A DNA stretch of 64,000 nt from Gammaproteobacteria bacterium (GTDB taxonomy: Bacteria; Pseudomonadota; Gammaproteobacteria; Ga0077536), in the NCBI GenBank assembly GCA_016874535.1, contig VGUA01000001.1:41188-105187 (forward strand). Reading direction: 5' to 3'. Below are positions 1,349 through 63,144 of this stretch, in pieces. Below the pieces are notes generated by a model. The model worked only from the letters and a program-made list of their open reading frames with translations. It did no database searches and had not been told where the DNA came from. The position numbers were made by a program, and so were the translations under genes. Within the stretch, counting starts at the first letter, position 1; each line of letters begins with the position of its first letter.

Positions 1349-4300
1349 CAGAATTCCAGCAGCTTCTTGATGGCCTTGCCGGCGCCGCCGGCCTTTTCCT
1401 CAATGAGTTTTTCCACGCCCTTCTGCAGCGCCTGGCCCGTCGCCTTGCCGGCGAGTCCGGCAAGATCCGGGGTGCAGCTCTTCACGGCGAGCGGGCCGCG
1501 ACAGCGAATCGGGATCTCGTAATCCCCCAGATTGTAGCGGTGGCCCTGCGTCTCACCGCTCGCTGGTGGCACGCGCAAACGCGCGACATAGTCCATCTGC
1601 GTGCGCGGCAGATCCGCCAATACACCTTCACCCGTGATCTGGAAGCCTTCACCTTCCATCAGGAGATCCCGGTTCCGCACCACACCCTTCTCGACGTTTA
1701 AGGATCCGGTGACGGAGCGGAAACGCGTGCTGCCCCCGGTCGGTGGCAGCTGGGGACGTTTGCTTTCCAGGGTGATCTCCGCCGCCCGCAGCACCGCAGG
1801 CAAGTCCAGCCCGCGCAATTCGCCGTCCGTGATGGCAAAGGAGGCCGGACCGTTGAGGCTTGCCAGCTGTTGCCGGGTATCGTTGCCGCGCATGGAGAGT
1901 CGGGCTTCAAAGTTCAGCACACCAGCGAGATCCTTGCTGTCCGCAACGTCCGTGAGCAAGGGCTCCAGATTGATCTTGGCGAGCGTCGTGTTGCTGTCGA
2001 GGATGGGCGTCTCGTCACGCACATCGAGCAGGAATTCTCCCTGGTAACGGCCACCGTAGAGCTGGGCCTTGACCGGTGCCAGGGCAAGCTTGCCAGCCTC
2101 CGCCTTCAGGCGGAGGTCGAGATCCGAAAGTCGCGCGCCGGCATACTGCAGGGTGCCGCAGTTGGCCTGGCCGTTGATATGCAGGGCGCGCAAACGCGCT
2201 TTTGGCAAACGCATCGCGCCGAGCGCGACAACCTCCGGAGTGATAACGTCCGCCTTGCCCTCTTTGTTCGCGCCGAGATACCGGTCGGCATCCAGCTTGT
2301 CGACTGACAGCGTGAAATCGATTCCGGGCGTGGCACCGGTCTCGAGCATCAGGTCCGCTTTCATCGTGGTCTCATCGATCGTCAGCACCATGCCTTTGAG
2401 CGCGTGCCGGACGGCATCGCCCTCCGTCCGCGCCTGCAGGCCTACCTTCGTCAACGCACGGGCATCACGCGTCTCTGGTGCAGGCTGCCCCAAAGTCATC
2501 AGCAAGCGTCGCAGATTGAATGGCGGAAGTTTCAGGTTGGACTCATAACCGGGCTCGCCGCCGGCGCGCGCGAACCTGCGAAAGCCGCCCGTGCCGGAAA
2601 GGCCGGGACCGGCCAGCACAATCTGGTCGAGGGTGAAGGTGCCGGTCTCCAGATTGGCGCTACCCTTGCCGCTGGACAACGACAGCTCAGCTGGTGCGGA
2701 ATCGCCCAATGGATGCAGCTTCACGCGCAGTGCCGAGGGCGCGAGAGTCAGGGCGCGCGTCGAACCGTCCACCGCCGCCTCCAGGCTGAGAGTGTCGACA
2801 CGCCCGGCGAACAACGGATAGTCCAGTGCGGCAAACAGGGGCTGCAGATCCTGTCCCTCGAGTGCGAGCTTGCCTTTGACCTTGCCGGCGCCATCGACGC
2901 CCGGGTTGGTCATTTGAAATTGCGCATTCAGGGACAGGCCAAAAGCGCTGGCACGAAGCGGCGCGAGCTCCAGCCTGCGCGCCGACGGGTCACGCTTCAG
3001 CCGCAGCTCTGTGGTGAAGGATTGATCCTTGGCCGTGGCGAGTCGGCGGGCTGTCTCAATCGCGGCAGGTGAGGCGCTGAGCGCACCCACGAGACCGAGC
3101 AGCGCAGGTAGATCCGGCCCTTGCAGCGAGAGATCTCCACTCAGCCCGGAAGCGGAAGCTACCGCCAGACCACCTTGCAACTGATTGCCAAGCACACTGC
3201 CTTGCAGGGCCTGCAACTGCAGATGTCGTTCGAAGAGATCGAGACCCAGCGCCGTCGTGAGTTCGTAGGCTCTGGACTTGCGTCCCGCCATGAGCGCTGC
3301 CAGAGCACCAAGGGAATCTTCATCCAGCCCCTGCAGGCTGCCACCAGCCAACACCAACGGCGTGAGGTCCCGTCCGCGCGAATCCAGCGTTCCCTGCAGG
3401 GTGGTCACCGCTTGCGGTGAGGGCAGATCGTCTCCCGTTGAAAGCCTTGTCGTTGTGCCGAACGCCTCCAAGGTAAGTTGTGGAAGCTTCAGCTCGTTGT
3501 TGCCGAGATCGCCCTTTAAGCGGGTCTTCAATGCGAAACGCCGATCTCCAGCCTTGCCCATGGCCTTGGCCAACGCACCGCGCGTCGGGGCCGTAGGATT
3601 CCGCAACTGGTTGAGAACCAGAATGAGGCCGGGAAGATCGTTGCCGCTGAGCTCCATCGCGCCTTCGAAGCGCGCCCGATCGCCGTCCAGCTCTGCCGCC
3701 TCTCCTTGCGCGGAGATCTGCACACCCAGTAATTGTCCTTTCAGGGACGTGAGCGACAGCGCGCCAGCGGCGGGCTCGAATTTGAACTCGCTGTCGATGT
3801 TGCTTGTCCGGCTTGCGAGCGATGCCACCCGCTCCGCGACCGGGAGCTCCAGCACACGCAGCAGACTCGCGAGATCCTGTCCGCGCAGCGCGAGCTTTCC
3901 CTCGATCGCGGGAAAGCCAGCACGAGGGAGGTCGAACGCCAAGGTGCCGGTGAGGCTGTGTCCCAGCCCTTCGAGGCTCAGGGCATCGACCAGCAATCGT
4001 TGCCGGCCGGGATCGAGCTTCACCTTGCTGCTGCCTTTCAGTGTAGCGCGCCCACCCGGCAGTTTCTTGCCACTGAGGCGGGCCTCGAAACCGAGAGGGG
4101 TTACCGAGTACCGGCGCTTCACCGGGTCGTACAGAGCAGTGCCACGCATCTCGACCGGCCCGCTGAGCGCAGGTTGACTGGCTGCAAGCTCGCCCTTGAG
4201 GGAAAACTCGACCGGCTCACCAAAGGCGAGGGGGGCTGATTGCAGGCTCGCTGCCGTGAGATGAGCCTCGCGGCCCGCCAGGCCATCTATCCAGTGGAGT

Positions 4301-4791: not shown

Positions 4792-6243
4792 TCAGCGGAG
4801 CGCAGACAACCGTTGTCGCGCCCGGACACACGCCTTACGCACTTGGCGTGGCGCCGTGCCGCCGAGATGGTCTCGCGCGGCCACCACGTTCGCGATGTCG
4901 AGCACCGGATAGACCGCCTCGGTGATCTGCGGATGCAGGGCCTGGAAATCGCCGAGCGGGAGCGCTTCCAGGCGGCATCGCCGCTCGATGGCGAGCTTCA
5001 CGGCTGTCCCCACGATGGCATGGGCATCACGGAAGGGCACGCCAATACGCACCAGATAGTCGGCAAAATCCGTGGCATTGGTAAAACCTGCTTCGGCCGC
5101 CTCACGCATGCGCTCGCGCCGCACCTCAAGGCTGGGGATGAGATCGCCAAACGCCCGCAGGCAGGCCTGCAAGGTATCCACCGTATCGAACAGGGGTTCC
5201 TTGTCTTCCTGATTGTCCTTGTTGTAGGCGAGGGGCTGACTCTTCATCAGCGTGATGAGTGACATCAAATGCCCCACCACGCGGCCACTCTTGCCACGCA
5301 CGAGCTCGGGCACATCAGGGTTCTTTTTCTGCGGCATCATGCTTGAGCCGGTGCAGAAGGCATCGGCCAGATCGATGAAGCCGAACTGCTGCGAATTCCA
5401 CAGCACGAGTTCCTCGGACATGCGTGAGAGATGCACCATGATGAGGGCGCCTGCCGCGGTGAACTCGATCGCAAAATCGCGATCGGAAACAGCATCCAGC
5501 GAATTCTCCGCCACGGCCGCAAACCCCAGCAGCTCTGCGGTCAGCTCGCGCCGGATGGGAAAGCTGGTGCCGGCCAGCGCGCCCGCGCCCAGCGGCAGCA
5601 CGTTGATCCTGCGCCGTGCGTCCTGCAGACGTTCGCGATCCCGGAGCAGCATCTCGAACCAGGCGAGCATGTGATGGCCGAAAGTGATCGGCTGCGCTGC
5701 CTGCAGATGCGTGAAGCCCGGCATCACGGTCGCGGCCTCGCGTTCGGCGAGATCGATGAGCGCGGCGAGCAAGGTATCGAGGCGTGCGCAGAGGCTGTCC
5801 ACCTGGTCGCGCAGGTATAGCCGAATATCGGTCGCGACCTGATCGTTGCGTGAACGTGCGGTATGCAGCTTCTTGCCGACGGCACCGATGCGAGCCACCA
5901 GCGCACTCTCGATGTTCATGTGGACATCCTCCAGTGCCACCGACCACTGGAACTTCCCGGCTTCGCATTCGGCGAGGATGTCGGTGAGACCGGCGACTAT
6001 CGCCGCGCACTCCTCCGCGCTCAGGATCCCGCTGGCAGCCAGCATGCTCGCGTGTGCAATGGAGCCCTTGATGTCCTGCGCGTAGAGTCGTTGGTCGAAA
6101 CCCACGGAGGCGGTGAATTCGGCGACGAACGCATCGGTGGGGCCTTCGAAGCGACCGCCCCAGGCCGAGTTGGCGCCGCTGGGAGCTCCGGAGAGGCTGG
6201 CCTCCGGGGCCTTGCTCGATGAGGGATGGGAGGAATCTGTCAC
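4792..6243 (-). CDS. argH: argininosuccinate lyase
   Basis: Conserved WGGRF...SRNDQ...GSS(M)MPQKKNPD fumarase/lyase signature. The ORF-track frame stays open to 6393, but the nearest start upstream of WGGRF is a GTG at 6243, and the earlier ATG or GTG starts would add 50+ unconserved residues. The true start is uncertain. Confidence 0.8.
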
Positions 6244-40978: not shown

Positions 40979-42184
<1,206 letters not shown>

Positions 42185-42334
42185 GCCCCCCGCTCTCCGG
42201 GGTGCCTCATGCCGAGGCGCCCCGGCCCGTCATTTATTCATCATCAAATCTTCATGTGACCTTCACGGTCACGTCACGGCCGATGCGGTGGCGTGGGCGC
42301 GCACCGGTAAGGACGTTGCCTGAGAGACTTCGGG

Positions 42335-42772
42335 GTGGCGCAGCCGCGTTTGGTGTTGGACACGAATCTGGTGCTTTCGGCACTGGTGTGCAGTTCCGAG
42401 CGCGCGGCGCGCTGGCGGATGATGTGGCAACGCAGGCTCATCCTGCCCTTGGTATCGCAGGCCACTGCCGCGGAGCTCATGCGGGCTTTGGCGTATCCCA
42501 AGTTCAAGCTCGGCAGCGCGGAGCAGGAGGAATTGCTGGCCGACTATCTGCCCAGCTGTGAGGTGGTGTCTGTGCCGCAGCCGCCCCCGGTCACGCCACC
42601 CTGCAGAGATCCAGCCGATACCGCATTTCTGATCCTGGCGTTGGCCGGGAAGGCAGATGCAATCGTCACCGGTGACAAGGACTGGCTTGCCTTGGCTGGT
42701 ATTTTCGCATGCCCAATCTTGACCACCGAGGCGGGCCTGCAGGTCTCCGAAAAATGGGTGACAGTTACCTGA
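42335..42772 (+). CDS. PIN-domain protein (putative TA-system toxin, TIGR00305-like), orphan
   Basis: LVLDTNLVLSAL... and DPADTAFLILALAGKADAIVTGDKDW match the PIN acidic-residue pattern. GTG start. No antitoxin ORF is evident upstream. The stop codon lies inside repeat copy 1. Confidence 0.6.
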   Translation: MAQPRLVLDTNLVLSALVCSSERAARWRMMWQRRLILPLVSQATAAELMRALAYPKFKLGSAEQEELLADYLPSCEVVSVPQPPPVTPPCRDPADTAFLILALAGKADAIVTGDKDWLALAGIFACPILTTEAGLQVSEKWVTVT

Positions 42773-42818
42773 TTTCTGGAAATAGGGTAACTGTCACTAA
42801 TTTATGTCACCAATTTAT
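42754..42818. repeat. Palindromic repeat family, copy 1 (GGGTGACAGTTACCTGATTTCTGGAAATAGGGTAACTGTCACTAATTTATGTCACCAATTT)
   Basis: Imperfect palindrome of the GGTGACAGTTACCC...GGGTAACTGTCACC unit plus an extra GTCACCAATT half-site. It lies between the convergent PIN gene and amidase 3' ends. Confidence 0.85.
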
Positions 42819-49018: not shown

Positions 49019-50405
49019 AGATCTCGATGCAATAGGACTGACCGAGTGGATACGCTCGGGTGAGGTGAGCGCGGCGGAAGTGCTGGAAGAAGCGATCCGG
49101 CGCGCGGAGGCGGCCAATGTCTCGCTCAATTTCATCGCCCACCGCGCCTATGACGAGGCGCGCAAGCGTGTAGGCGATGGCACTTTGCCACGCGGTCCGC
49201 TGCACGGCGTGCCGTGGTTGGTGAAGGAGCTCGCCACGCTCTGGCAAGGCCAACCTTTCACCAACGCCCTGCCGTGGATGCGCGGGGTGGTGGCGCCCTG
49301 CGATTCTGAAATCCTCTCCCGGCTCAAGCATGCAGGCATGGTGCCGTTCGCCAAATCCACCGCACCCGAAAACGGCTGGATGCTGGCAACAGAGTCATCT
49401 CTGCACGGCATCACCCGCAATCCTTTCAATCTGGACAGAACACCCGGCGGATCGAGCGGCGGCTCTGCCGCAGCGGTTGCGGCGCGCGTGGTGCCGATGG
49501 CGGAAGCCTCGGACGCCGGGGGATCGATTCGGGGGCCCGCTGCAAACTGCGGCCTGGTTGGCCTCAAACCCGCGCGCGGACGCGTGAGCTTGGCGCCCGC
49601 CCTGGGTGATTTCTGGCATGGCGGCGCAACGATTCTTGGCGTTACCCGCACCGTGCGCGACACCGCCCTACTGCTGGATGTGACACAAGGGCAGTTGCCC
49701 GGAGATCCTTACCAGTTGCCGCCTCCTGCGCGGCCCTATCTCGAAGAAGTCGGGATCCCGCCGGGCAAGCTGCGCATCGCCATCGTCACGAATACGCCCG
49801 CGGGTGGCACGCCACTCGATCCACAAATCGCTGCGGCCGTTGTGGCCACCGGTGCCTTGCTGGAAAGTCTGGGTCACCTGGTGGAGCCGCAGGTGGTGCC
49901 GTATGACTATCCGCGTCTGCTGGAGACCTATACCGCCATCGCCGCCACGGAGACAGCGGCTTTCTTCGAGGCCGTCATTCCCATGGTCGGAAGATCTGCG
50001 GAGCGCGCGGACATGGCGCCGATGTACTGGTCCATGTGTGAGAAGGGTCGGGCCACCACCGGCGTACAGCACGCGGCGAATATCGAAGCCATGCGGCAGA
50101 TCGCGCGCGACATCATGGGCCGCATGAACACCTACGATGCGTGGTTGATGCCTGTGCTACCGATGCTGCCGCGTGCGCACGGCTATTACGACATGTCCCG
50201 CGACGTGGACTATTACAACCGCGAGCTGCTGGGGCCGGACTGCTGCTACACGATGCCCTTCAACGTGAGCGGCGCACCGGCCATCGCCATGCCCGCCGGC
50301 TTCTCACGCGACGGGCTGCCGATAGGCGTTCAATTCGTGGGCCGGGATTGTGACGAAGCCACCCTCATCCGGCTGGCCGCGCAGCTCGAGCGCGCCCGGC
50401 AATAG
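49002..50405 (+). CDS. amidase (amidase-signature family)
   Basis: 467 aa with GGSSGGSAAAVAARVVPMAEASDAGGSIRGPA and the catalytic Lys in LVKEL. Overlaps the preceding gene by 17 nt (same operon). Confidence 0.85.
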   Translation: MLKEYEDLDAIGLTEWIRSGEVSAAEVLEEAIRRAEAANVSLNFIAHRAYDEARKRVGDGTLPRGPLHGVPWLVKELATLWQGQPFTNALPWMRGVVAPCDSEILSRLKHAGMVPFAKSTAPENGWMLATESSLHGITRNPFNLDRTPGGSSGGSAAAVAARVVPMAEASDAGGSIRGPAANCGLVGLKPARGRVSLAPALGDFWHGGATILGVTRTVRDTALLLDVTQGQLPGDPYQLPPPARPYLEEVGIPPGKLRIAIVTNTPAGGTPLDPQIAAAVVATGALLESLGHLVEPQVVPYDYPRLLETYTAIAATETAAFFEAVIPMVGRSAERADMAPMYWSMCEKGRATTGVQHAANIEAMRQIARDIMGRMNTYDAWLMPVLPMLPRAHGYYDMSRDVDYYNRELLGPDCCYTMPFNVSGAPAIAMPAGFSRDGLPIGVQFVGRDCDEATLIRLAAQLERARQ

Positions 50406-50410
50406 GAAAA

Positions 50411-50576
50411 TTGGTGGGAAATTGGTGACAGTTACCCCATTTCGGAATTCGTGACAGTTACCTCATTTCGGAATTCGTGACAGTTACCTCATTTCCGCAA
50501 ATAGGGTGACTGTCACGGTATGTACGTCACGGTACCGCCACTGGCTGGGGAAATAGGGTAACTGTCACCCATTTCC
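50411..50576. repeat. Palindromic repeat family, copy 2 (compound: three tandem 27-30-bp half-units GTGACAGTTACCYCATTTCGGAATTC plus inverted half-units)
   Basis: TTGGTGACAGTTACCCCATTTCGGAATTC, GTGACAGTTACCTCATTTCGGAATTC, GTGACAGTTACCTCATTTCCGCAAATAGGGTGACTGTCAC ... GGAAATAGGGTAACTGTCACCC. It is directly followed by the AAGGAG RBS of the hydantoinase-like gene. Confidence 0.85.
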
Positions 50577-50597
50577 CAAGCCTAAGGAGTCACGACC

Positions 50598-51988
50598 ATG
50601 CATGATCTCGTCCTGCGTAACGGTTTGGTAGTGACGCCCGCGGGCAGCTGTGGGGAGGAGTCGCAGTAGACGGCGAGCGCATCACACGGGTGGGCGCCGA
50701 TGCGGAGCTTCGACAAGGGCGCCGGGAAATCGACCTCAACGAACGCATCCTGCTACCAGGCGTATTCGATCCTCATATTCATTTTGAGGTTGGAGAGCGC
50801 TTCGGTGACGAAGCGATGGCGGAAGATTTCCGACACGACAGCAGGGACTGCCTGATTGGGGGCGTGACCTCCATTGCCACTACAACCGTTCTGGGGCGCG
50901 ACCCCTTGCCTGAACTGGTGGCGCGCGGAATCAAGGCGGGCACGGGCCAGGCTTGGTGTGACTTCAAATTCACCGGCGTTGTGATGACGCGCGAACACGT
51001 TCGCGAGATCGAGGCTGCCGCACACGCTGGAGCCACTTCATTCAAATTCTTCACCGGCTATGTGGGAGAGCAGGCAGAGGGCTTCGGGATGTCCAAGGAA
51101 GGGATACCACCGGACATGTTCTACGAGGCCTGCGAGGCGCTGGCGCGCTGCGAGCGCCCGGTATTCGCCAAGATTCATGCTGAGGATCCATACGTTCGCG
51201 GGCTGCTGGTTGACCGACTGCGACGCAGTGGCCGCGCCGATCAGCTTGTTGCCTGGGCCGAATCCACCCCGGAATGGGCCGAAGCCGTCCAGATCTTCAC
51301 CTATGGCTGCATCGCGCATGATTTCCGTATCCCACTTTACCCGGTGCACATCAGTGCCGCGTACACGGTGCGCTTTCTTGAGTACTTCATGCAGCAGGGC
51401 GTGAACGTGGTACCCGAGACTGTGACGAGTTTCCTCGCCACCACGGCGCATCAGATGGATGCGCACGGCATGGGATGTAAGGCCAAGATTCAGCCGCCGA
51501 TTCGCTTTGCCGAGGACAAGGAGCGACTGTGGCGTGGCGTGCGTGAAGGTGTCATCAAGGTCGTCGGCACCGACAGCATTCCTTATTCCAGTGGCTTCAA
51601 GGAAGGAGCCGATTTCTGGGAATGTCGCGTCGGCTTAAACCTCCAGATGGCGGACACACTGCCCCTCTTGTTTGATGAAGGAATCAACCAACGTCGCATA
51701 GACCTCAACCGTCTGGCGGAGATTACCTCTACCAACGCGGCGAAACTCTATGGGCTCTATCCCAAAAAGGGCGCGATTGCCCCGGGGAGTGATGCGGATC
51801 TGGTAGTCGTCGATCCCGAGCGCACCGCGGTGCTGGGCGTCAACAGAATGCGTTCCCGTGCCGACTACTCGATGTGGCACGACCGTCGCCTCAAAGGCAT
51901 TCCGGTAATCACCGTCCTGCGTGGCCGGGTTGTGATGGAGGATGGTGAGATCGTGGCCAATGAACCAACCGGCCGTTTCATCCACTGA
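50598..51988 (+). pseudogene. hydantoinase/dihydropyrimidinase-like cyclic amidohydrolase with an apparent -1 frameshift near 50640-50670
   Basis: A perfect RBS (TAAGGAGT) plus ATG at ~50598 encodes the canonical N-terminus MHDLVLRNGLVVTPAG and then hits TAG after 23 codons. The rest (GVAVDGERITRVGADAEL...LLPGVFDPHIHFE, carboxylated-Lys site SFKFF, VGTDSIPY) continues in another frame (track ORF 50690..51988). Confidence 0.6.
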
Positions 51989-52112
51989 GACCGTCAAGAT
52001 CCGGGTCCATCGGCAAAGGCTCTTCTATGACCTCTGACAGCACGCGCAAGCTTTACCGCGAAGCCAGCATCGGGCACGTATTGGGATTTGTCAACGCCCG
52101 GCCCTGATCGTC

Positions 52113-52681
52113 GTGGACATGCAGTACGGATTCACGGACCCCGCACGTTCGTCACTGGCCGCGGATTGTTCGCGCGAGATACCGCAGATGAACGCGCTGG
52201 TGGATGCGATGCGCTCCCGTGGCGCCCCTATTTTCTGGTCCGTGATTGCCTATCGCGACAGCGAGGTGCGTGATGCGCGCCTGTGGTCACGCAAGGCCCC
52301 CCCTTGGGCGTGCTGGTCGAGAACACAGCGATGACGGAGATCGATGCCCGCATGCACTTTGCCCCTGAAGACTTCCTCATCGTGAAGAAGCATGCATCGG
52401 CCTTCTTTGGCACCCCCTTGGCTTCCATGCTCACGGCCAGCACAGTCGACACCACTGTGGTGGTTGGTTGCACGACCAGTGGCTGCGTACGGGCAACGGT
52501 CACGGATGCAATCGCGCATGGTTTTCGACCCATCGTCCCGCGGGAGGCGGTTGCAGACCGGGCGCCTGAACCGCATCTGGCGAGTCTTTTCGACATGGGC
52601 GCGAAATATGCCGATGTGATGACGGTGGAAGAGACCCTCCAGGCCATTTGCGCCTGCCCGCATACGCATCCCGGAAATTAG
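52113..52681 (+). pseudogene. isochorismatase-family hydrolase with a frameshift at a C7 homopolymer (~52297-52303) and no canonical upstream start
   Basis: The N-terminal part (ALIVVDMQYGFTDP...) is in frame 0 (52113..52334). The C-terminal part (FLIVKKHASAFFGTPL...VVVGCTTSGCVRATVTDA with catalytic Cys) is in frame 2 (52283..52681). One extra C in the GGCCCCCCCTT run would join them. The stop codon lies inside repeat copy 3. Confidence 0.6.
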
Positions 52682-52762
52682 TGACAGTTACCCTATTTCC
52701 TGAAATAGGGTAACTGTCACCAATTCCCAAAAAATGGGGTAACTGTCACCAATTTCTCATGG
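52672..52762. repeat. Palindromic repeat family, copy 3
   Basis: GGAAATTAGTGACAGTTACCCTATTTCCTGAAATAGGGTAACTGTCACCAATT plus an extra half-site GGGGTAACTGTCACCAATTT. It lies between convergent 3' ends (isochorismatase-like gene and cytochrome c). Confidence 0.85.
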
Positions 52763-53152
52763 CCAGTGACGCGTAGGCACTCCGAATGGTGCGCGCAGTT
52801 GCTGCAGGTAACTCACCAGCTGCCAGATGGAGTTCTCAGGCAGGAGTTCGCCGTAGGCGGGCATGCCATGCGGGCGTCCATTGGCGATGGAGTGGAACAG
52901 CGCGTCAGCATCTCCGCCAAAGCGCCAGCGCCCGTCAGCGAGGCTGGGGCCGACCCAACCCGATCCCCCTCCGCCGTGGCAGCCGTCGCAGTTCATGCTG
53001 GAGAAGAGTGCTTCGCCAGCAGCCACTGCACCGGGCTCCCCCGCGAGCGGATTGCCGGCGGGCGCTTCATCTGCGATGACCGTAAAAGCAGCCACTGCCA
53101 CCGCCATCGCGCAGACCACCGAAGACCAGAGCCTCACAGCGCAAACACCCAC
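52757..53152 (-). CDS. c-type cytochrome (ExaB/c550-like electron acceptor of the adjacent PQQ dehydrogenase)
   Basis: 131 aa with a signal peptide and a CDGCH haem motif. The start overlaps the PQQ-ADH stop by 19 nt. Confidence 0.75.
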   Translation of the reverse strand: MGVCAVRLWSSVVCAMAVAVAAFTVIADEAPAGNPLAGEPGAVAAGEALFSSMNCDGCHGGGGSGWVGPSLADGRWRFGGDADALFHSIANGRPHGMPAYGELLPENSIWQLVSYLQQLRAPFGVPTRHWP

Positions 53153-54924
53153 ACCATGCCACCTTGGCTGGTGTACCGCGCGAGATCGGGCGCGAAATCG
53201 GTGGGCGGTCGCACATCAGCCGGATCTGCCGAATTCACGTCACCCGCCACCAGTGACCAGTCGCCGCCGATCCCGGAGTACACCGCGATGTACTGTCGTC
53301 CATCAGGTCCGCGATAACTGATGGGTGCACCGATCACCCCCGACCCCACCTTGAACTTCCACAGTGGCTTGCCGGTGTTGGCATCAATCGCCTTGAACCA
53401 GCCATCGAGCGTGCCGTAGAACGCCACGTCACCGGCCGTGACCAAGCTGCCGCTCCACACAGGGAAGCGCTCGTTTACTTCCCACTTCTTGCGGCCGGCC
53501 GCTGCATCCCAGGCCATGAACCCTCCCAGATGAGGGCCTGCACCCGGATGATAGGGAATGGTGGCGCCGACATACGGCGTGCCTTTGACGTAAATCGCGT
53601 CAGCCGATTGCCAGTCCATGCAGAGATTTAGCGTGGGTACATAGAAGAGCTTGGTGCGCGGAGACCAGGCAGCGGGCGCAGATGGCCCTTTGCCGCCTTC
53701 GAGCGTCGGGCAGATGTTCTTTACCAGACCGTGCGATTTGCCGGTCAATTTTTCCGGCACCACCAGCGGTCGGCCCGTGGTCTTGTCGACACCCGTCGCC
53801 CAGTTCACCGGCACATAAGGCTCGGCGACCAGCACCTCGCCAGTCGCGCGATCGAGTGCGTAGGCAAAGCCGTTCTTGTCGAAATGCACCAAGGCCTTAC
53901 GCACCCGGCCATCAATCTCCAGATCGACCAGGATGTTCTCCGCCGTCGCGTCGTAATCCCAGTTGTCGAAGGGCGTGAACTGATAAGCCCACACCAGCGA
54001 GCCGTCACCCGGCTTGCGGGCCATCACGCTCGCACTCCACTTGTTGTCGCCGAGACGCTGTTCCGCGTTGTAGGGGCCGGGGTTGCCGGTGCCGTAGTAC
54101 ACGAGATCAAGCGCCGGGTCATACGACAGCCAGCCCCATACCGGCGCACCACCGCGCTCCCAGCTTTCTTCGGCCCAAGTGTCCGTGCCGGCGTTCGGTG
54201 CTGGCGGGTAGGAAGGTTTGAAAGTTTCCTGCTTTACGCCCATTCCGGTATCAGGCCCCAGATTGCGCATCTGCCAGACAATCGCGCCAGTTTCCAGATC
54301 AAGCGCCTTCAATGAGCCGCGAATCCCGAACTCCCCGCCGGAGGGCCCCACCAGCACGCGGTTTCCCGCCACCAGCGGCGCCATGGTCAGGGTTTCGCCG
54401 CTGGCGAGATCCGCGACAGTGGTCTTCCAGAGTTCCTGCCCGGTTTTCGCGTCCACCGCCACCGTGCGGCCATCGAGCAGGTTGTAAACGATCTTGCCGT
54501 CGGCATGCACGGCCCCGCGATTCACGGCATCACAACAGGCGATACCAATCGCGGCGGGATTGGCATCCGGCCGGTACTTGAACCGCAGGGGATAGTCTTC
54601 CTGAGTCAGATCGAAGGCATACAGCACATTGGGCCACGGCGTGACGACATAGAGCGTGTCATCCACCACCAAAGGCTGGCCCTCATGTCCGCCCAGCACG
54701 CCGGTGGAGAAATTCCAAACCATGCGCAGCTTGCCGGCGTTCTCGGGCGTGATCTCGGCCAGCTCGCTGTAGCGCGTGCCGGCCATGTCCCCACCGGGCT
54801 GCGTCCACTCCTCACCCGCACCCGCCTGAACCTCGCCGGCGCCTAACAGCAGCCCCACCAGAAAAATGGGTGACAGTAACCCTATTTCCCGGAATCGGAT
54901 GGCTGTCGCGGTTTTTCCAGGCAT
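53134..54924 (-). CDS. PQQ-dependent alcohol/methanol dehydrogenase, type I, probable lanthanide-dependent (XoxF/ExaF/PedH-like)
   Basis: Eight-bladed propeller with the vicinal disulfide CC (IACCDAV) and a catalytic Asp in WDYDA, which has the extra Asp characteristic of Ln-dependent enzymes (Ca-type MxaF has WDYAG). Start taken at M16, giving the signal peptide MPGKTATAIRFREIGLLSPIFLVGLLLGAGEVQA, part of which is encoded by repeat copy 4. Confidence 0.8.
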   Translation of the reverse strand: MPGKTATAIRFREIGLLSPIFLVGLLLGAGEVQAGAGEEWTQPGGDMAGTRYSELAEITPENAGKLRMVWNFSTGVLGGHEGQPLVVDDTLYVVTPWPNVLYAFDLTQEDYPLRFKYRPDANPAAIGIACCDAVNRGAVHADGKIVYNLLDGRTVAVDAKTGQELWKTTVADLASGETLTMAPLVAGNRVLVGPSGGEFGIRGSLKALDLETGAIVWQMRNLGPDTGMGVKQETFKPSYPPAPNAGTDTWAEESWERGGAPVWGWLSYDPALDLVYYGTGNPGPYNAEQRLGDNKWSASVMARKPGDGSLVWAYQFTPFDNWDYDATAENILVDLEIDGRVRKALVHFDKNGFAYALDRATGEVLVAEPYVPVNWATGVDKTTGRPLVVPEKLTGKSHGLVKNICPTLEGGKGPSAPAAWSPRTKLFYVPTLNLCMDWQSADAIYVKGTPYVGATIPYHPGAGPHLGGFMAWDAAAGRKKWEVNERFPVWSGSLVTAGDVAFYGTLDGWFKAIDANTGKPLWKFKVGSGVIGAPISYRGPDGRQYIAVYSGIGGDWSLVAGDVNSADPADVRPPTDFAPDLARYTSQGGMVWVFAL

Positions 54925-55012
54925 GGGGTGGCTTTCGGAAATGGGGTAACTGTCACGAATTTCCGTCACGAATTTCCGGTGAGCGCGGAAATAGGGTAAC
55001 TGTCACCCATTT
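54862..55012. repeat. Palindromic repeat family, copy 4 (compound, about 150 bp)
   Basis: GGGTGACAGTAACCCTATTTCCCGG ... GGAAATGGGGTAACTGTCACGAATTTCCGTCACGAATTTCC ... GGAAATAGGGTAACTGTCACCC. It spans the PQQ-ADH start and 5' region, and lies downstream of the BVMO gene. Confidence 0.85.
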
Positions 55013-56838
55013 ATTTCGCAGCCGGGCAGGTCTCCGGCTGCGCGCCACCCGCGCAGGATGTCGAAAAACCGGAGCGGTCCTCCGCCATAGGAATAGGCGA
55101 AGAAACTGTTGCGGTTACCCGTGCGGCCCTCGTTGTTGTAGTAGCCCGGTGTGCACTCCTGCCGGAACTGCTCACCCATGCTGGCCTTGCTCTCCATCTC
55201 CGCCACCCAGGCGGCTTCGCCTTCCTCGGTGGCTTCCACCTTGCTGGCACCCCGCTGCCGCAACTCATTCAAGATATAGGTCACGTGTCGCGCCTGTTCA
55301 TCCAGCGTCTGCGGCACGTTCACCGTCACGGCACTCTGCGTGAAGCCGAGGAAAAAGCAGTTAGGAAAACCGTGCGTCTGCAACCCGTGCAGGGTGCGCA
55401 GGCCCTCGGCCCATTTCTGGCTCAAGCGGCGTCCATTGCGCCCGACGATGTCATAACCGGCGCGACGGGTGTATCCGGTGCCCACCTCGAAACCGGTCGC
55501 GAAGATGAGGCAGTCGAGTGCGTACTCCTGACCATCCACCACCACCCCGTGTTCGGTGATCCGCTCCACGCCTTTGCCGGCAGTGTCGATCAGATGCACA
55601 TTTGGGCGATTGAAGGTGGGCAGATAATCGTCGTGAAAACACGGGCGTTTGCAGAACTGGCGATACCAAGGCTTCAGCTTCTCGGCGGTGGCCGCATCCT
55701 GCACGATGGATTCCGCGCGAGCGCGCACGGCATTCATCTTCTGGTAGTCCGCGATCTCCATCAGCAGATCGCGCTCTTCGCCGGTGAGTCGGCGGCCAAT
55801 CTTGCGTGAGGCGGTCTTGGCTGCGATGGCGGTGAGGTTGCGGAAGATGTCCGTCCAGCCATCGGAGACGAGATCGACTTCCTGATCTCCACCGGAAACC
55901 AGAATGTTGAAATTCTCCATGCGGCGATACTGCCAGCCGGGCTCGAGCGAGGCGGCCCATTCGGGATCCGTCTCGCGATTGTTGCGGACATCAATGGAGC
56001 TGGGCGTGCGCTGGAATACATGGAGCGATTTGGCCGAGGCGCCGAGATGTGGGATGCACTGCACGGCCGTCGCACCGGTGCCGATGATGCCGACGCGCTT
56101 GTCCTTGAGCCCATGTAGATTGCCAGTGCTGTCGCCACCGGTGTACGCATAATCCCAGCGACTGGTGTGGAAGGTATGGCCCTTGAAGCGGTCGATGCCG
56201 GGTATTCCCGGCAGTTTGGGACGGCTGAGCGGCCCGTTGGCCATGGCGACGAAACGCGCCCGCATCTTGTCGCCGCGATCGGTCTCGATGATCCAGTAGC
56301 CGGATGCCTCATTCCAGTTCATGGCGGTCACCGAGGTCTGCAGCAACGCATCGTCATACAGACGGTAGAGACGAGCGATGTTGCGGGAATGCTCGAGGAT
56401 CTCCGGCGCGTACGAATATTTATGCTTGGGGATGTAGTTCAGCTCCTCCAGCAGCGGCAGGTAGCAGTAGGACTCCACATCGCACATCGCGCCCGGGTAG
56501 CGGTTCCAGTACCAGGTCCCGCCAAAGTCGCCGCCTTGTTCGATGACGCGGATGCTCTCGAAGCCGGCCTCGCGCAGTCGCCCGCCCATCAAGAGGCCAC
56601 CAAATCCGCCACCGATGATGACCACCTCCACCGTGTCGTTCACCGGTGCGCGCTCGATGCGCGGCGTATAGGGATCATCGATGTAGTTGGAGAAGTCGCC
56701 TTTGACCTCCAAGTATTGGTCGTTGGCGTCCTCGCGCAGCCGGCGGTCGCGTTCGGCGAGATAGCGGGCCTTGAGCGCCTGCGGGTCGAAATCGATTTCG
56801 CCAAGCACCTGGCGGATGACGTGCATTGCCTCGGACAT
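55003..56838 (-). CDS. type I Baeyer-Villiger monooxygenase (CPDMO/HAPMO-like, with N-terminal extension)
   Basis: 611 aa with FAD and NADPH Rossmann motifs (IIGGGFGG, IIGTGATA) and the BVMO fingerprint FKGHTFHTSRWD. Confidence 0.85.
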   Translation of the reverse strand: MSEAMHVIRQVLGEIDFDPQALKARYLAERDRRLREDANDQYLEVKGDFSNYIDDPYTPRIERAPVNDTVEVVIIGGGFGGLLMGGRLREAGFESIRVIEQGGDFGGTWYWNRYPGAMCDVESYCYLPLLEELNYIPKHKYSYAPEILEHSRNIARLYRLYDDALLQTSVTAMNWNEASGYWIIETDRGDKMRARFVAMANGPLSRPKLPGIPGIDRFKGHTFHTSRWDYAYTGGDSTGNLHGLKDKRVGIIGTGATAVQCIPHLGASAKSLHVFQRTPSSIDVRNNRETDPEWAASLEPGWQYRRMENFNILVSGGDQEVDLVSDGWTDIFRNLTAIAAKTASRKIGRRLTGEERDLLMEIADYQKMNAVRARAESIVQDAATAEKLKPWYRQFCKRPCFHDDYLPTFNRPNVHLIDTAGKGVERITEHGVVVDGQEYALDCLIFATGFEVGTGYTRRAGYDIVGRNGRRLSQKWAEGLRTLHGLQTHGFPNCFFLGFTQSAVTVNVPQTLDEQARHVTYILNELRQRGASKVEATEEGEAAWVAEMESKASMGEQFRQECTPGYYNNEGRTGNRNSFFAYSYGGGPLRFFDILRGWRAAGDLPGCEING

Positions 56839-57106: not shown

Positions 57107-58153
57107 ATGCGCTTTGGACTGCTCTACCCGCCCACGTTCGACGCCGCCACGCACTGCGACTCCGCCACCCTCTACCAACAGATCTGCGAGCAGGTGGAAC
57201 TGGGCGAAACCTTGGGCTACGGGGCGGTGTGGCTGGCGGAACATCACTTCACGCCCTATGGCGGCGACATACCCAACCCGCCGCTGCTGCTGGCTGCGCT
57301 CGCGCAGAGAACGAGAAAGATGCGCCTTGGCACGGCCGGCGTCGCGCTTCCACTCAACCGCGCACTGAACATTTCGTAGCAACTCGCGATGGTTGATGCC
57401 CTCTCGGGGGGACGCCTTGATATCGGCGTGGTGCGAGCATTCCTCGATTTCGAATTTGAGGCGCTGCAGGTGGACATGGGCGAGTCCCGCGATCGCTTCA
57501 ACGAGGCGGTCGAGATTCTGCTCGGCACTTGGGCGAACGAACGCTTCAGTTATCAGGGCCGCCATAACCGGTTTGAGAACGTGATGATGCGGCCCCGTCC
57601 TGTCCAGCGTCGGCCGCGGATCATCGTCGGCACGGTGCTGAGCCCTGAGTCCGCGCGCTACGCCGGGCTGAACGGCTTTGGTCTCATGGTGATTCCCTAC
57701 GCGGTGACGCTGGAGGGCGTGAAACAGAGCGTCAAGATCTACCACGAGGCATTGCTTGGGGCTGGGCACAACATTGAAGACCACACGGTGCAGGCCACTT
57801 TCCATCTCTACGCCGCCTCCACTGAAGCTGAGGCGAAGGCCGCCGCGCGCGAGCCGATGGAACGTTATGTGCAGTATTTCGCGGATGCGATCGCGGGTGA
57901 TCGCTGGTCCAAGGATTACGTGGGCTACCAGGGGATGGCAGAGAAGGTCCTGGGCCTCAAGAACTTTGATGTGCTCTACGACGGTCGCGTGATGATCGGC
58001 GATCCGCCACGGCTGCACGCAATGATGGAGCGGGCTCTGGAAGCCGGCATCGGGGAACTGTCATTCATCACCATGCTGCCCGGCCTGGAACAGGCAAAAG
58101 TGCTGGATTGCCTGCGGCTCTTTGCTGAAGAAATCATGCCGCGCTATCGGTAA
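57107..58153 (+). pseudogene. LLM-class (luciferase-like) flavin-dependent oxidoreductase interrupted by in-frame TAG at 57377-57379
   Basis: Track ORFs 57107..57379 and 57389..58153 are in the same frame and are separated only by TAG plus 3 codons. The stop falls in the conserved ...LPLNRAL/NIS*QLAMVDALSGGRLDIGV region of the TIM barrel. Confidence 0.6.
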
Positions 58154-58267
58154 GCCGCGACACTCGTGAAAGTCGTCGGTGGGATGTGCAAGGCCGTAGC
58201 AGTGTTCGCGATTCAACAAGGCCATGGTGTCCTGGGCGCCGAGCCCCGAATCCCCGCAGCTCCGGGC

Positions 58268-58377
58268 AATTGGTGACGGAAATTGGTGACAGTTACCCTA
58301 TTTCCGGAAATGAGGTAACTGTCACCAATTTGGGGGTGCTACCTAATCTTCCGAAATGGGGTAACTGTCACGAATTA
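58268..58377. repeat. Palindromic repeat family, copy 5
   Basis: AATTGGTGACGGAAATTGGTGACAGTTACCCTATTTCCGGAAATGAGGTAACTGTCACCAATTT plus a downstream half-site GGGGTAACTGTCACGAATT. It lies between convergent 3' ends (LLM gene and FkbM-like gene). Confidence 0.85.
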
Positions 58378-58385
58378 TCATGCGG

Positions 58386-59264
58386 TCAGGCGTACCAGCA
58401 CTCGGAAAGCACGCGATTGGGATGCATCAGGCTATTGGGCTGGTCCAGTGGGTGGGGGAAAACCCGCGCCGGTCGGCTTTGCGTGATGCGATCCCGGCGC
58501 AGCAGCGTGAACTCCATCGCACGCGATACGGCGTAACCGGCCACGTGTGAGATGGGCGAATGATTGTTGGGATGAATGTGAACCACCGCGAAATCATCGA
58601 GCAGAGGCTCGATGCAGCGGGGGATGCGTCTGTTCACCACGCCGCCGTTCAAGTTGGTCAGCTGGTCGAGCTGATGCAGCTCCATGACGATGATGCGGAA
58701 GCGCTTGAACAAGGACGGGTCCGTCGCAGCCAGCACCGGGTACTCGGCACCCTCGATGTCCATCTGCAGCAGGAGATCGTTGTCCCCGGGTGCGGCATGC
58801 CGGTTCACCCAATCGGCGAGCGACACCACCCCGTCGCCAGTCTGCGCGCCCAGATTCAACTTCTCGAAGGTCATCAGCGAATGCGTGAAGGAGGGGCCCT
58901 CCACCGTGCCATCGGCGAGGTGACACGGGATCCCCCGTTCCAGCAGGGAGTTCTCGAACGCCGAAGTGGGACCCACGCCGGGAGAGAAACAGCGCTGGAT
59001 TCCTGCGAGGTCGTCCGGGACGAGATAGCCGCCGTCGCCGTCTCCCCCGAGGCGGATGAGCTTGTGCTCGGTTTCCACCGGCTTCAGGCGTTGGATGAAT
59101 GGCCCGAGCAACAGCGGTACCAGCAGGCGGCGCAGAATGCGCTCGCCCAGGGGCAGCTTCTCGCGGAACCGCTTGCGGTTGACCTTTCCGGTCTTGGGAT
59201 TGCCAGACATACCCGGATAGCGGCGATTCCAAGCATTCTCTTGAAGAGATTCCGGGCTCCTCAC
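58386..59264 (-). CDS. hypothetical protein with FkbM-methyltransferase-like core (tentative)
   Basis: Motif LLQMDIEGAEYPVL resembles the KIDVEGAE block of FkbM-family methyltransferases, with a Gly-rich region LGGDGDGGYL. The true start may be an internal Met (~59210). Assignment is weak. Confidence 0.4.
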   Translation of the reverse strand: MRSPESLQENAWNRRYPGMSGNPKTGKVNRKRFREKLPLGERILRRLLVPLLLGPFIQRLKPVETEHKLIRLGGDGDGGYLVPDDLAGIQRCFSPGVGPTSAFENSLLERGIPCHLADGTVEGPSFTHSLMTFEKLNLGAQTGDGVVSLADWVNRHAAPGDNDLLLQMDIEGAEYPVLAATDPSLFKRFRIIVMELHQLDQLTNLNGGVVNRRIPRCIEPLLDDFAVVHIHPNNHSPISHVAGYAVSRAMEFTLLRRDRITQSRPARVFPHPLDQPNSLMHPNRVLSECWYA

Positions 59265-59394: not shown

Positions 59395-60474
59395 ATGCCC
59401 AAATTGACCTTCACCGAAACCAGGCTGTCTCTGTCGCGGACCTACGCGCTCCCTGAGAGAGAAGACGCGCCAACGACAGCCCCGGTAGCGCTCACCCCGG
59501 TTGGCTACGAGCACCTGTCCCTGTTGCCCGAGGCTCTGGAACCGGCGATGGAGGTTCCCTCCTCAGAGGACCCTCCGCCAGCCGATAGCCGCCTGGCCAA
59601 TCCCAATCCCTACGGATTCACGCCATCGCTGCCGGAAATCTTCTACGCACAGGAACCCATCCTTGCGGAAGACGGCACAGTCATCGGTTACCTCGATACC
59701 TGCACTTGGCAACAGGACGGATACACCTCCACCTTCGTAGTCGAGTACGACGCTGACTTCAATGTGGTGAGCACGCTCTACTACGACAGCGCGGGATATT
59801 CGTCCTACAGCCTGTTCTACGCCGTCGTCGATGAGGAAGGCAACATCACGGGCTACGAAAACTTCTCTTCCTGGACAGATGGCACCGGAGCATGGGGCGA
59901 GTCGGTGAACGTGTACGACGCGTCTTGGCAGTTCCTCGGCAGTGAATATCGTGACTCCTGGGGCAATATCGTCAATACCGTCTACTTCTATGCGGAAGAC
60001 GGCAGCCGGGCAGGCCAAGAGGTCCGCGCGAGCTGGACGGACGCCGAGGGCGGCGTGACGGAAACCACCACTGTCTACGACGCCAACTGGCAGTGCATCT
60101 ATACCGAATCCCGGGACAGCTGGGGTACCACGGTCACCACGCAGTACATCTACGGCGAAACTGGAGAACTGGTGGCGCTGGAGATTACCGCCTCAGGCGT
60201 GGACGAGAACGGAGAAGCCTGGAGCAGCTACACCTGGCAGCCAATGGTTGAGGTGGATACGGGTGGAATCGACTGGGTCGATTTGCTGCCTGTCACGGAG
60301 GTGCCGCCGGAGGAGCCGCGGCCGGAGGAAATCCCGCAGATCATCATCTGTGAATTCCTGGTGCCTCATCCGGAGACTATCGACCTCGACCTTCAACCCC
60401 CGGAAGCCATCGAACCGATTCCGGTCGAGTGGCTGCGCCCTGCAGAGCTCGTCGGCGTACCCGGAAATTGGTGA
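59395..60474 (+). CDS. acidic Tyr/Trp/Thr-rich protein with internal ~43-aa tandem repeats, unknown function
   Basis: Repeats such as YDASWQFLGSEYRDSWGNIVNTVYFYAEDG and YDANWQCIYTESRDSWGTTVTTQYIYGETG. No signal peptide. A/T-ending codons (AAT, TAT, GAA) are more frequent than in neighbouring genes. The stop codon lies inside repeat copy 6. Confidence 0.5.
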   Translation: MPKLTFTETRLSLSRTYALPEREDAPTTAPVALTPVGYEHLSLLPEALEPAMEVPSSEDPPPADSRLANPNPYGFTPSLPEIFYAQEPILAEDGTVIGYLDTCTWQQDGYTSTFVVEYDADFNVVSTLYYDSAGYSSYSLFYAVVDEEGNITGYENFSSWTDGTGAWGESVNVYDASWQFLGSEYRDSWGNIVNTVYFYAEDGSRAGQEVRASWTDAEGGVTETTTVYDANWQCIYTESRDSWGTTVTTQYIYGETGELVALEITASGVDENGEAWSSYTWQPMVEVDTGGIDWVDLLPVTEVPPEEPRPEEIPQIIICEFLVPHPETIDLDLQPPEAIEPIPVEWLRPAELVGVPGNW

Positions 60475-60531
60475 AAGTTACCCTATTTCTTCGTTGATCG
60501 GCAGAAATTGGTGACAGTTACCCTATTTCTT
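60462..60531. repeat. Palindromic repeat family, copy 6 (two direct half-units)
   Basis: GGAAATTGGTGAAAGTTACCCTATTTCTTCG ... GAAATTGGTGACAGTTACCCTATTTCTTTG. Confidence 0.8.
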
Positions 60532-63037: not shown

Positions 63038-63131
63038 AAGTGGTGGGGAAATTGGTGACAGTTACCCTATTTCCGGAAATAGGGTAACTGTCACCAATTA
63101 CGGACGTCACCAATTACGGACTGTCACCGAT
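63038..63131. repeat. Palindromic repeat family, copy 7 (contains the perfect 50-bp palindrome AATTGGTGACAGTTACCCTATTTCC/GGAAATAGGGTAACTGTCACCAATT at ~63051-63100)
   Basis: The two 25-nt halves are exact reverse complements. It is followed by two extra half-sites (GTCACCAATTACGGAC x2). Confidence 0.9.
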
Positions 63132-63144
63132 ATCGCCGATGGGA

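Follow-up and report, generated by a model that had tools for sequence, protein, structure and literature searches.

Repetitive extragenic palindromic sequences (REPs) lie mainly downstream of genes, and a flanking open reading frame (ORF) frequently takes its stop codon from a REP terminus. Some REPs are found inside ORFs and in frame, including at N-termini, where mis-annotated start codons are suspected by the authors for many cases; G-T pairs in the stems hint at a role of the RNA (Di Nocera et al. 2013, PMC3733652). Rickettsia palindromic elements (RPEs) insert in frame into protein genes, the added peptide being tolerated (review PMC10969869). The element considered here is a 27-28 nt imperfect palindrome from a 64,000-nt stretch of DNA of a Gammaproteobacteria bacterium (assembly GCA_016874535.1, contig VGUA01000001.1, positions 41,188 to 105,187; hereafter the window, whose own numbering is used unless a relative is named). 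Two inverted units of it lie at the predicted start of a gene for a pyrroloquinoline quinone (PQQ)-dependent alcohol dehydrogenase (PQQ-ADH), and further units hold stop codons of neighbouring genes. Probably, absorbed repeats of the REP/REPIN-like kind supply a segment of the PQQ-ADH leader as well as these stop codons.

The units resemble REP/BIME and GTAG/CGTC repeats (PMC3733652) in being imperfect palindromes within the range of 20-40 nt that occur singly, as inverted dimers and in clusters, in the G-T pairs of their stems, in their location mostly downstream of genes, in supplying stop codons, and in having copies in frame within ORFs. Unlike the GTAG/CGTC REPs, they carry no such tag at either end and no associated transposase was seen; unlike the N-terminal cases of the same study, the N-terminal copy is here read as translated. 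With the REPIN-RAYT system (Bertels & Rainey 2011, PMC3116915) they share the pairing of two inverted units, with a short or zero spacer, into one long hairpin (-42 kcal/mol), and the presence of one family in related species, whereas tandem forward arrays and partial duplications of the left arm are more prominent in the present family. RPEs are longer (about 100-150 bp, as against 28 nt), come from different sequence families, and as a rule sit within the gene, not at its termini. Because the GTAG/CGTC tag is absent and a RAYT link would be conjectural, the family is filed as REP-like in the broad sense only.

MIRUs, the description of which is attributed to Supply et al. in 1997, are reportedly intergenic repeats of operons that overlap the upstream stop codon and the downstream start codon. 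The junction between PQQ-ADH and the Baeyer-Villiger-type flavin monooxygenase (BVMO) gene upstream of it has exactly this arrangement; MIRUs, however, are said to be direct repeats of 40-100 bp rather than palindromes, and what they encode is described as small linking ORFs, not a signal-peptide segment. REPs of Escherichia coli lying within about 15 nt of stop codons are said to modulate translation, a result ascribed to Liang, Rudd and Deutscher in 2015. They would share with the present family a hairpin at or immediately after the stop codon, which in the present family is often inside the hairpin arm. The phenomenon as such is already documented, for REP-type repeats as well as for RPEs and for MIRUs. 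The new elements are a repeat family not described before and an unusually well-supported case, predicted in three lineages, of a start region and signal-peptide segment derived from a repeat. Translation of N-terminal repeats is usually dismissed as mis-annotation of the start codon; here it is supported by the three lineages, the lack of an alternative start, purifying selection and the loss of the hairpin.

The 5' end of the PQQ-ADH gene

The repeat cluster at the BVMO–PQQ-ADH junction fills the entire intergenic region and extends beyond it (Table 1). In gene orientation it consists of unit A, a 9-nt spacer, a 13-nt partial copy, unit B, an 18-nt spacer, unit C, and unit D. The initial annotation, all coordinates of which held, had placed the start codon and the 5' untranslated region of PQQ-ADH within the element: the leader does consist of unit B with the partial copy, while the ATG lies in the spacer between units B and C. 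It had also proposed that the element supplies part of the signal peptide, and this is upheld for residues 3-21 of 34, in frame in three lineages. Units C and D abut exactly like the canonical doublets of the family, and the inverted doublet that they form (54862-54918) corresponds to those residues. Unit D matches the consensus at 24 of 28 positions, a score reached by none of 20,000 random sequences of 64% GC. Unit C is more decayed (p about 0.004 in the window), its counterpart in the orthologue L004 again being unmatched in 20,000 random sequences. The coding doublet no longer forms a strong hairpin (-12 kcal/mol, z = -0.3, vs -42 kcal/mol for the canonical doublet).

In frame 3, the frame used by the gene, the canonical doublet reads KLVTVTLFPEIG-stop-LSPIS (K-L-V-T-V-T-L-F-P-E-I-G-stop-L-S-P-I-S), and its sole stop codon is TAA. 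Unit D carries TTA in place of this TAA, and this one substitution is enough to open the frame. The N-termini of three lineages, when counted from the GTG, match the canonical doublet peptide at 10-11 of 15 residues; the repeat therefore appears to supply the leader up to residue 21. The NCBI protein (P0001, 596 aa) uses the same start, ATG 54924. An exact-protein look-up gave no match for the 596-aa form of PQQ-ADH and three identical assemblies for a 611-aa form. The partial copy at 54965-54977 holds an alternative GTG start at 54969, within a stretch (54937-54977) that is missing in the lineage L071.

The closest orthologue of PQQ-ADH (P0002, loci L004-L007 and L063; 91% protein identity) has the same four units at the same positions. 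The third lineage, L071, was found in a metagenome scan, and its protein is 87% identical to that of the window and 85% identical to that of L004. Units A, C, and D are positionally homologous in all three lineages, unit B being common to the window and L004 only, and in each of them unit D is in frame with TTA. From the shared start position, the window and L004 sequences are both 1791 nt long (597 codons) and align without gaps. Synonymous divergence (dS) between them is 0.62, and dN/dS amounts to 0.42 in the signal peptide and 0.06 in the mature protein. As in RPE-bearing genes, an element is read through in frame, and this frame is kept in three lineages. By the measure of these substitution rates, PQQ-ADH has been under purifying selection, strong in the mature protein, since the doublet was incorporated. 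For each of the three independent lineages, the comparison supports translation of the unit as part of the predicted signal peptide. Homologues at about 75% identity (L049-L052) contain no units and have clear Shine-Dalgarno sites; the alignment to such repeat-free proteins, suggested as a check on the initial annotation, agreed with it, as their signal peptides are unrelated. In L004 and L071, AGGA stands 6-7 nt upstream of the GTG of the unit C core, which is probably their start codon, and the ancestral start of PQQ-ADH would have been a repeat-core GTG.

The predicted signal peptide of the window protein comprises codons 1-34 (54823-54924), MPGKTATAIRFREIGLLSPIFLVGLLLGAGEVQA, and is of the Sec type with cleavage after VQA; this V-Q-A directly precedes GAGEEW, which aligns with the mature N-terminus of homologues. 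By heuristics other than SignalP, the leader read from ATG 54924 is arranged normally into n-, h-, and c-regions, with a net charge of +3 in the n-region and an 11-residue Kyte-Doolittle peak of 2.52 (homologue median 2.43), and it presumably works as a Sec signal peptide. No start codon downstream of the doublet is common to the three lineages. Between unit D and the mature protein, the only potential start is a GTG of the window (V24), which would leave a 12-residue leader without an n-region and corresponds to GCA in L004. The next ATG (M47) lies within the conserved mature domain and would yield a cytoplasmic protein. A downstream start with its own signal peptide outside the repeat, which would have spoken against the claim of the initial annotation, is thus not available in usable form.

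These observations fit an undescribed family of REP/REPIN-like short palindromic repeats that would settle at the 3' ends of genes. Where a copy lands on the native stop codon, or a few codons before it, the gene would come to end inside the repeat, because the units carry stops in several frames, and its last 2-7 non-conserved residues would be replaced. In the case of PQQ-ADH, an inverted doublet would have been taken into the 5' end of the gene. Its frame 3 offers the repeat-core GTG, preceded by GGAA of the repeat's own left arm; with TTA instead of TAA, translation could start in or just before the doublet, run through it, and continue into what is left of the hydrophobic region and the cleavage region of the signal peptide. 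The repeats would have spread by transposition rather than by another copying process. On this account, selfish palindromes can provide genes with start codons, stop codons, and leader residues and yet not destroy them.

The repeat family and its position at gene 3' ends

The 28-nt consensus of the unit is GGAAATTGGTGACAGTTACCCTATTTCC. With up to 8 mismatches tolerated, the window contains 19 units, grouped into 7 intergenic clusters (42.7 to 63.1 kb). With at most 2 mismatches, it contains 22 copies of the 13-nt core GGGTAACTGTCAC, vs 0.59 expected by chance. The repeat is strongly clumped, with all 19 units in 21 kb (42750-63139) and 0 in the preceding 42.7 kb, despite many intergenic regions there. 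Position-by-position conservation over 144 copies reveals a nearly invariant core and 3' arm, GGTGACAGTTACCCTATTTC, and a looser 5' arm, the units having GGAAAT... at one end and ...CTATTTCC at the other. The core was found in 41 loci of about 12 metagenome-assembled genomes (MAGs), nearly all from uncultured Gammaproteobacteria. In the window and in these loci alike, the copies are dispersed and mainly extragenic, lie downstream of genes, and form dimers or clusters, and every cluster is built with forward units first and reverse units last.

A single unit folds into a stem-loop (-8.3 kcal/mol, z = -2.05), as REP-type repeats do, and a subtype with ATAGGG folds better still (-13.9 kcal/mol, z = -5.2, 12-bp stem). 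Abutting forward and reverse units make a 56-nt palindrome; the consensus doublet has a 26-bp stem (-42.1 kcal/mol, z = -10.6). Canonical doublets of this kind, i.e., inverted pairs with a long hairpin as in REPINs, are located at 63047-63102, 58278-58333, 52673-52728, and 42750-42805. The outer edges of clusters often carry tandem partial copies of the left arm of the unit (13-16 nt), always ending at or near GGTGAC (e.g., GGCAATTGGTGAC, then GGAAATTGGTGACAG), a pattern that slippage or the copying mechanism itself may have left behind.

An Rfam search with the repeat returned only sub-threshold chance matches to microRNA hairpins, and the sole full-text match to GTGACAGTTACC in the literature was an unrelated yeast paper. 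A plasmid or phage origin found no BLAST match. Integron attC sites were rejected, as the genes run in both directions, R'/R'' core motifs are lacking, and a length of 7.6 kb would have to be assumed for one 'cassette'. A consensus scan flagged no terminator or promoter function of the units. To the study of mobile DNA, the family adds one without the usual GTAG or CGTC tag.

The stop codons of three genes in the window, encoding a PIN protein, an isochorismatase-like protein, and an acidic protein, had been assigned to the repeat in the initial annotation. This assignment is correct but an undercount: the BVMO and amidase stops lie inside repeat sequence as well, which makes five (four in full units and one in a partial copy), and two more border on it, with an overlap of one base at most. 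Stops are present in one of the three frames of a forward unit (TGA) and in two of the three of a reverse unit (TAG, TAA). Over all loci, 28 of the 32 gene 3' ends adjoining a unit read into its forward orientation, and in 21 of them the stop codon lies inside the unit or at most 3 nt before it. Gaps of at most 3 nt account for 44% of the measured distances between gene end and cluster (hand count).

Comparison with relatives supports the suggestion that insertion of the element remodelled gene termini, since PIN and acidic-protein homologues without the repeat end differently. PIN family members end about 10 residues after CPILTAE in variable tails (...CPILTAEaFLaeLsakR), vs ...TTEAGLQVSEKWVTVT in the window, where the terminal ...EKWVTVT is encoded by the repeat; a PIN homologue at 75% identity (L055) has no unit. 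The acidic protein ends in GVPGNW in the window and, at loci without a unit, in GVLPPEA (L004) and GILPPEI (L053). A further homologue, 48% identical (L054), ends in GVLAPDP, and a near-consensus unit (3286-3315) starts at the last base of its stop codon; with a unit at the stop here and none in L004 or L053, the gene family would have gained a unit there at least twice, or retained it for a very long time. The BVMO stop lies in unit A in all three lineages, though at differing positions, with the endings CEING (window), CEIR (L004), and CAVQ (L071). In the isochorismatase gene, the repeat encodes residues past the end of the Pfam domain and the tail is of usual length. Overall, the C-terminal changes are limited to 2-7 non-conserved terminal residues. 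For the annotation of gene ends in repeat-rich uncultured Gammaproteobacteria, homology alone is insufficient.

Alternative explanations

A chance resemblance of the signal peptide to the repeat is effectively refuted. A 19-mer encoding EIGLLS does occur in unrelated low-GC contigs (e.g., in a MerR-like gene in L068), but the match of unit D was not equalled by random sequences, unit D is joined by a second, decayed unit in the manner of canonical doublets, two further units come directly upstream, and homologues outside the repeat-bearing clade lack the sequence. Very improbable, too, is an annotation artefact in which the repeat is only the 5' untranslated leader and PQQ-ADH translation starts downstream. 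Many N-terminal REPs are indeed suspected to be extragenic, with the true start further downstream (PMC3733652), and the Shine-Dalgarno sequence before ATG 54924 is weak; yet three lineages keep both the frame and its length across the unit, each with TTA where the stop would fall, and a start at V24 or M47 would give the short leader or the cytoplasmic protein described above.

The units might instead be retained chiefly as RNA hairpins that stabilise the 3' ends of mRNAs or couple to terminating ribosomes, as reportedly shown for E. coli REPs near stop codons, the stop codon being embedded for that purpose and the PQQ-ADH case being a side effect. This is conceivable though improbable as the main explanation, and it would be compatible with a mobile origin. 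The orientation bias of the adjoining genes (28 of 32), the concentration of stop codons within about 8 nt of the core, and the better folding of the forward strand (-8.3 vs -6.7 and, for the subtype, -13.9 vs -11.8 kcal/mol), where a G-U pair stands against an A-C mismatch on the reverse strand, are consistent with it. On the other hand, the stem lacks covariation, its 3' arm being nearly invariant whatever the 5' arm, and no terminator-like signature is present. The outward forward orientation follows from the forward-then-reverse build of the clusters, and single units show a bias of no more than about 11 to 3. Distinctly less likely is the view of the units as operator or other protein-binding sites, or as recombination sites bounding gene cassettes, in which case their overlap with gene ends would merely result from the dense packing of the region. 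Such sites would account for the strong clumping (19 units in 21 kb after 42.7 kb with none), for a core and 3' arm that are nearly invariant across species while the 5' arm varies, and for the coincidence of clusters with gene-content differences between the window and L004 (e.g., a 2.3-kb two-gene segment). They sit poorly with copies beside unrelated genes on many contigs of many MAGs, with a location at gene 3' ends and not at promoters, with the free variation of unit number, spacing, and tandem arrangement, and with in-frame copies within unrelated genes. No integrase or recombinase gene was found nearby in Pfam scans of the window, and ordinary recombination between dispersed repeats predicts repeat-bounded indels just as well.

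Several points weigh against absorbed REP/REPIN-like repeats as the source of the leader and the stop codons. The start codon of PQQ-ADH has turned over between lineages and has no single conserved position, and the Shine-Dalgarno sequence of the window gene is weak, as noted. The TTA variant is also present in non-coding copies of the repeat elsewhere, so a change unique to the coding copy is ruled out; TTA may predate the incorporation of the doublet and need not have arisen or been selected in place. The signal-peptide call relies on simple heuristics, not on SignalP or experiment, and all sequences compared are metagenome assemblies. As for the kind of element, the GTAG/CGTC tetranucleotide that defines the superfamily is absent from both unit ends in the 144 copies, and the flanks of all 7 clusters show no consistent target-site duplications such as those of miniature inverted-repeat transposable elements. 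No RAYT-type gene was present among the window ORFs scanned against Pfam, and a crude HUH-motif screen of 227 ORFs from the 41 repeat-bearing loci, not conclusive in itself, gave no RAYT candidate.

A more far-reaching idea, and a doubtful one, would make the doublet a portable translation-start and leader module, in which the left arm offers a Shine-Dalgarno-like GGAA and the core a GTG start, while one frame needs a single mutation to encode a semi-hydrophobic leader (MTVTLFPEIGLLSPI). Such selfish repeats could create or replace export signals and start codons, and could also mark the boundaries of exchangeable gene cassettes in the clade; the PQQ-ADH leader would then be an exaptation kept for long (dS at least 0.6), not a tolerated accident.

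Repeat clusters and neighbouring genes

Positions of the units, clusters, and gene ends are collected in Table 1.

Table 1. Coordinates of repeat units, repeat clusters, and predicted start and stop codons (window numbering unless a locus is named; "units" gives the cluster extent counted by units only)
Feature	Position	Strand	Remarks
BVMO gene	55003..56838	minus	Upstream of, and co-directional with, PQQ-ADH
Unit A	54987..55014	minus	Holds BVMO stop TGA 55003-55005; encodes BVMO end ..ING
Unit B with 13-nt partial tandem copy of its left arm	54937..54977	minus	Unit B 54937-54964, partial copy 54965-54977; 5' untranslated leader of PQQ-ADH
B–C spacer	54919..54936	minus	18 nt; ATG 54922-54924 and weak GAAAG ribosome-binding stretch
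Unit C	54890..54918	minus	Decayed forward unit; codons 3-12 (GKTATAIRFR)
Unit D	54862..54889	minus	Intact, reverse relative to gene; codons 12/13-21 (E13-F21, EIGLLSPIF)
PQQ-ADH gene	53134..54924	minus	596 aa; ATG 54922-54924
Position of window ATG	54922..54924		Window ATG; L004 GTG; L071 ATT
GTG of unit C core	54906..54908		Window GCG; L004 GTG; L071 GTG
Start-codon sites in relatives			L004 9986 and 10001; L071 5065
Cluster 1	42750..42816		Units 42750-42805; inverted doublet and partial outer repeat; holds PIN stop and convergent amidase stop
Cluster 2	50404..50576		Units 50417-50576; partial repeat, three tandem forward units, one degenerate reverse unit, one intact reverse unit
Cluster 3	52673..52757		Units 52673-52757; one forward and two reverse units; holds isochorismatase stop
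Cluster 4			Units 54862-55014
Cluster 5	58265..58379		Units 58278-58379; methyltransferase stop (58386-58388, minus) 6 nt past cluster, no overlap
Cluster 6	60463..60530		Units 60463-60530; two forward units; acidic-protein stop is TGA of unit core
Cluster 7	63047..63139		Units 63047-63102; canonical perfect doublet and tandem partial repeats; reference copy
Tandem partial left-arm copies	42795-42816, 50404-50416, 54965-54977, 58265-58277, 63103-63139		
PIN stop	TGA 42770-42772		Inside unit; tail EKWVTVT
Amidase stop	TAA 42815-42817	minus	Inside partial outer repeat of cluster 1; convergent with PIN
Second amidase stop	TAG 50403-50405		Abuts partial repeat of cluster 2
Isochorismatase stop	TAG 52679-52681		Inside unit of cluster 3; tail ..PGN
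Cytochrome c stop	TGA 52757-52759	minus	Unit edge; overlaps last base of cluster 3
BVMO stop	TGA 55003-55005	minus	Inside GGTGAC core of unit 54987-55014
Acidic-protein stop	TGA 60472-60474		Inside unit core; tail PGNW

The repeat-rich part of the window has a G+C content of 0.60-0.62, vs 0.64-0.65, and contains genes of accessory type, such as amidases, LigB-type dioxygenases, and PIN and HepT toxin genes. A tRNA or integrase boundary for these 21 kb was rejected, as no tRNA genes were found there and Pfam scans returned no integrase or mobile-element genes. Gene content differs between the window and L004 at several clusters. Clusters 2 and 3 of the window (50417-52757) bracket a 2.3-kb segment that L004 lacks, with an amidohydrolase and an isochorismatase gene, both apparently pseudogenes; in L004 (12153-12234), the second amidase gene adjoins the cytochrome c gene via just one repeat cluster. 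Clusters 6 and 7 likewise enclose differing content, and the luciferase-like monooxygenase gene of the window is replaced, at repeat clusters, by a 137-aa cytochrome-like gene in L004.

Three genes of the repeat-rich part are disrupted. The amidohydrolase gene has a good Shine-Dalgarno site and an ATG at 50598 (50598-50669) and continues after 23 codons in another frame (50690-51988). The isochorismatase domain is split over two frames (52113-52334 vs 52283-52681), and the gene is probably a pseudogene because of this frameshift. The luciferase-like monooxygenase gene has an in-frame stop at 57377-57379 (57107-57379 vs 57389-58153). Since independent assemblies (L001-L003) have the same split calls, the isochorismatase and monooxygenase disruptions cannot be put down to this assembly; those contigs do not include the amidohydrolase N-terminus. 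The PIN (VapC-like) gene (42185-42772) comes after an acyl-CoA dehydrogenase gene that ends at 42184. No antitoxin-sized open frame was found in the 150-nt gap upstream, and the PIN homologue in L055 (75%) is preceded by an overlapping 79-aa gene. The window copy may be an orphan or decaying toxin gene.

In-frame units are also present in two other genes. In L027, a unit (1749-1776) encodes SVTVTLFP in the linker between the HisKA and HATPase_c domains of a sensor histidine kinase, and in L040, a unit (5926-5953) encodes GDSYPIS inside the N-formylglutamate amidohydrolase (FGase) domain.

The PQQ-ADH gene is followed by a cytochrome c gene (52757-53152) that overlaps its end. The PQQ-ADH motif FDNWDYDATAENI has an Asp two residues past the catalytic Asp (W-D-Y-D), which we take to be a mark of lanthanide-dependent enzymes of the XoxF/ExaF/PedH type, and several JGI homologues of the protein carry names of this type.

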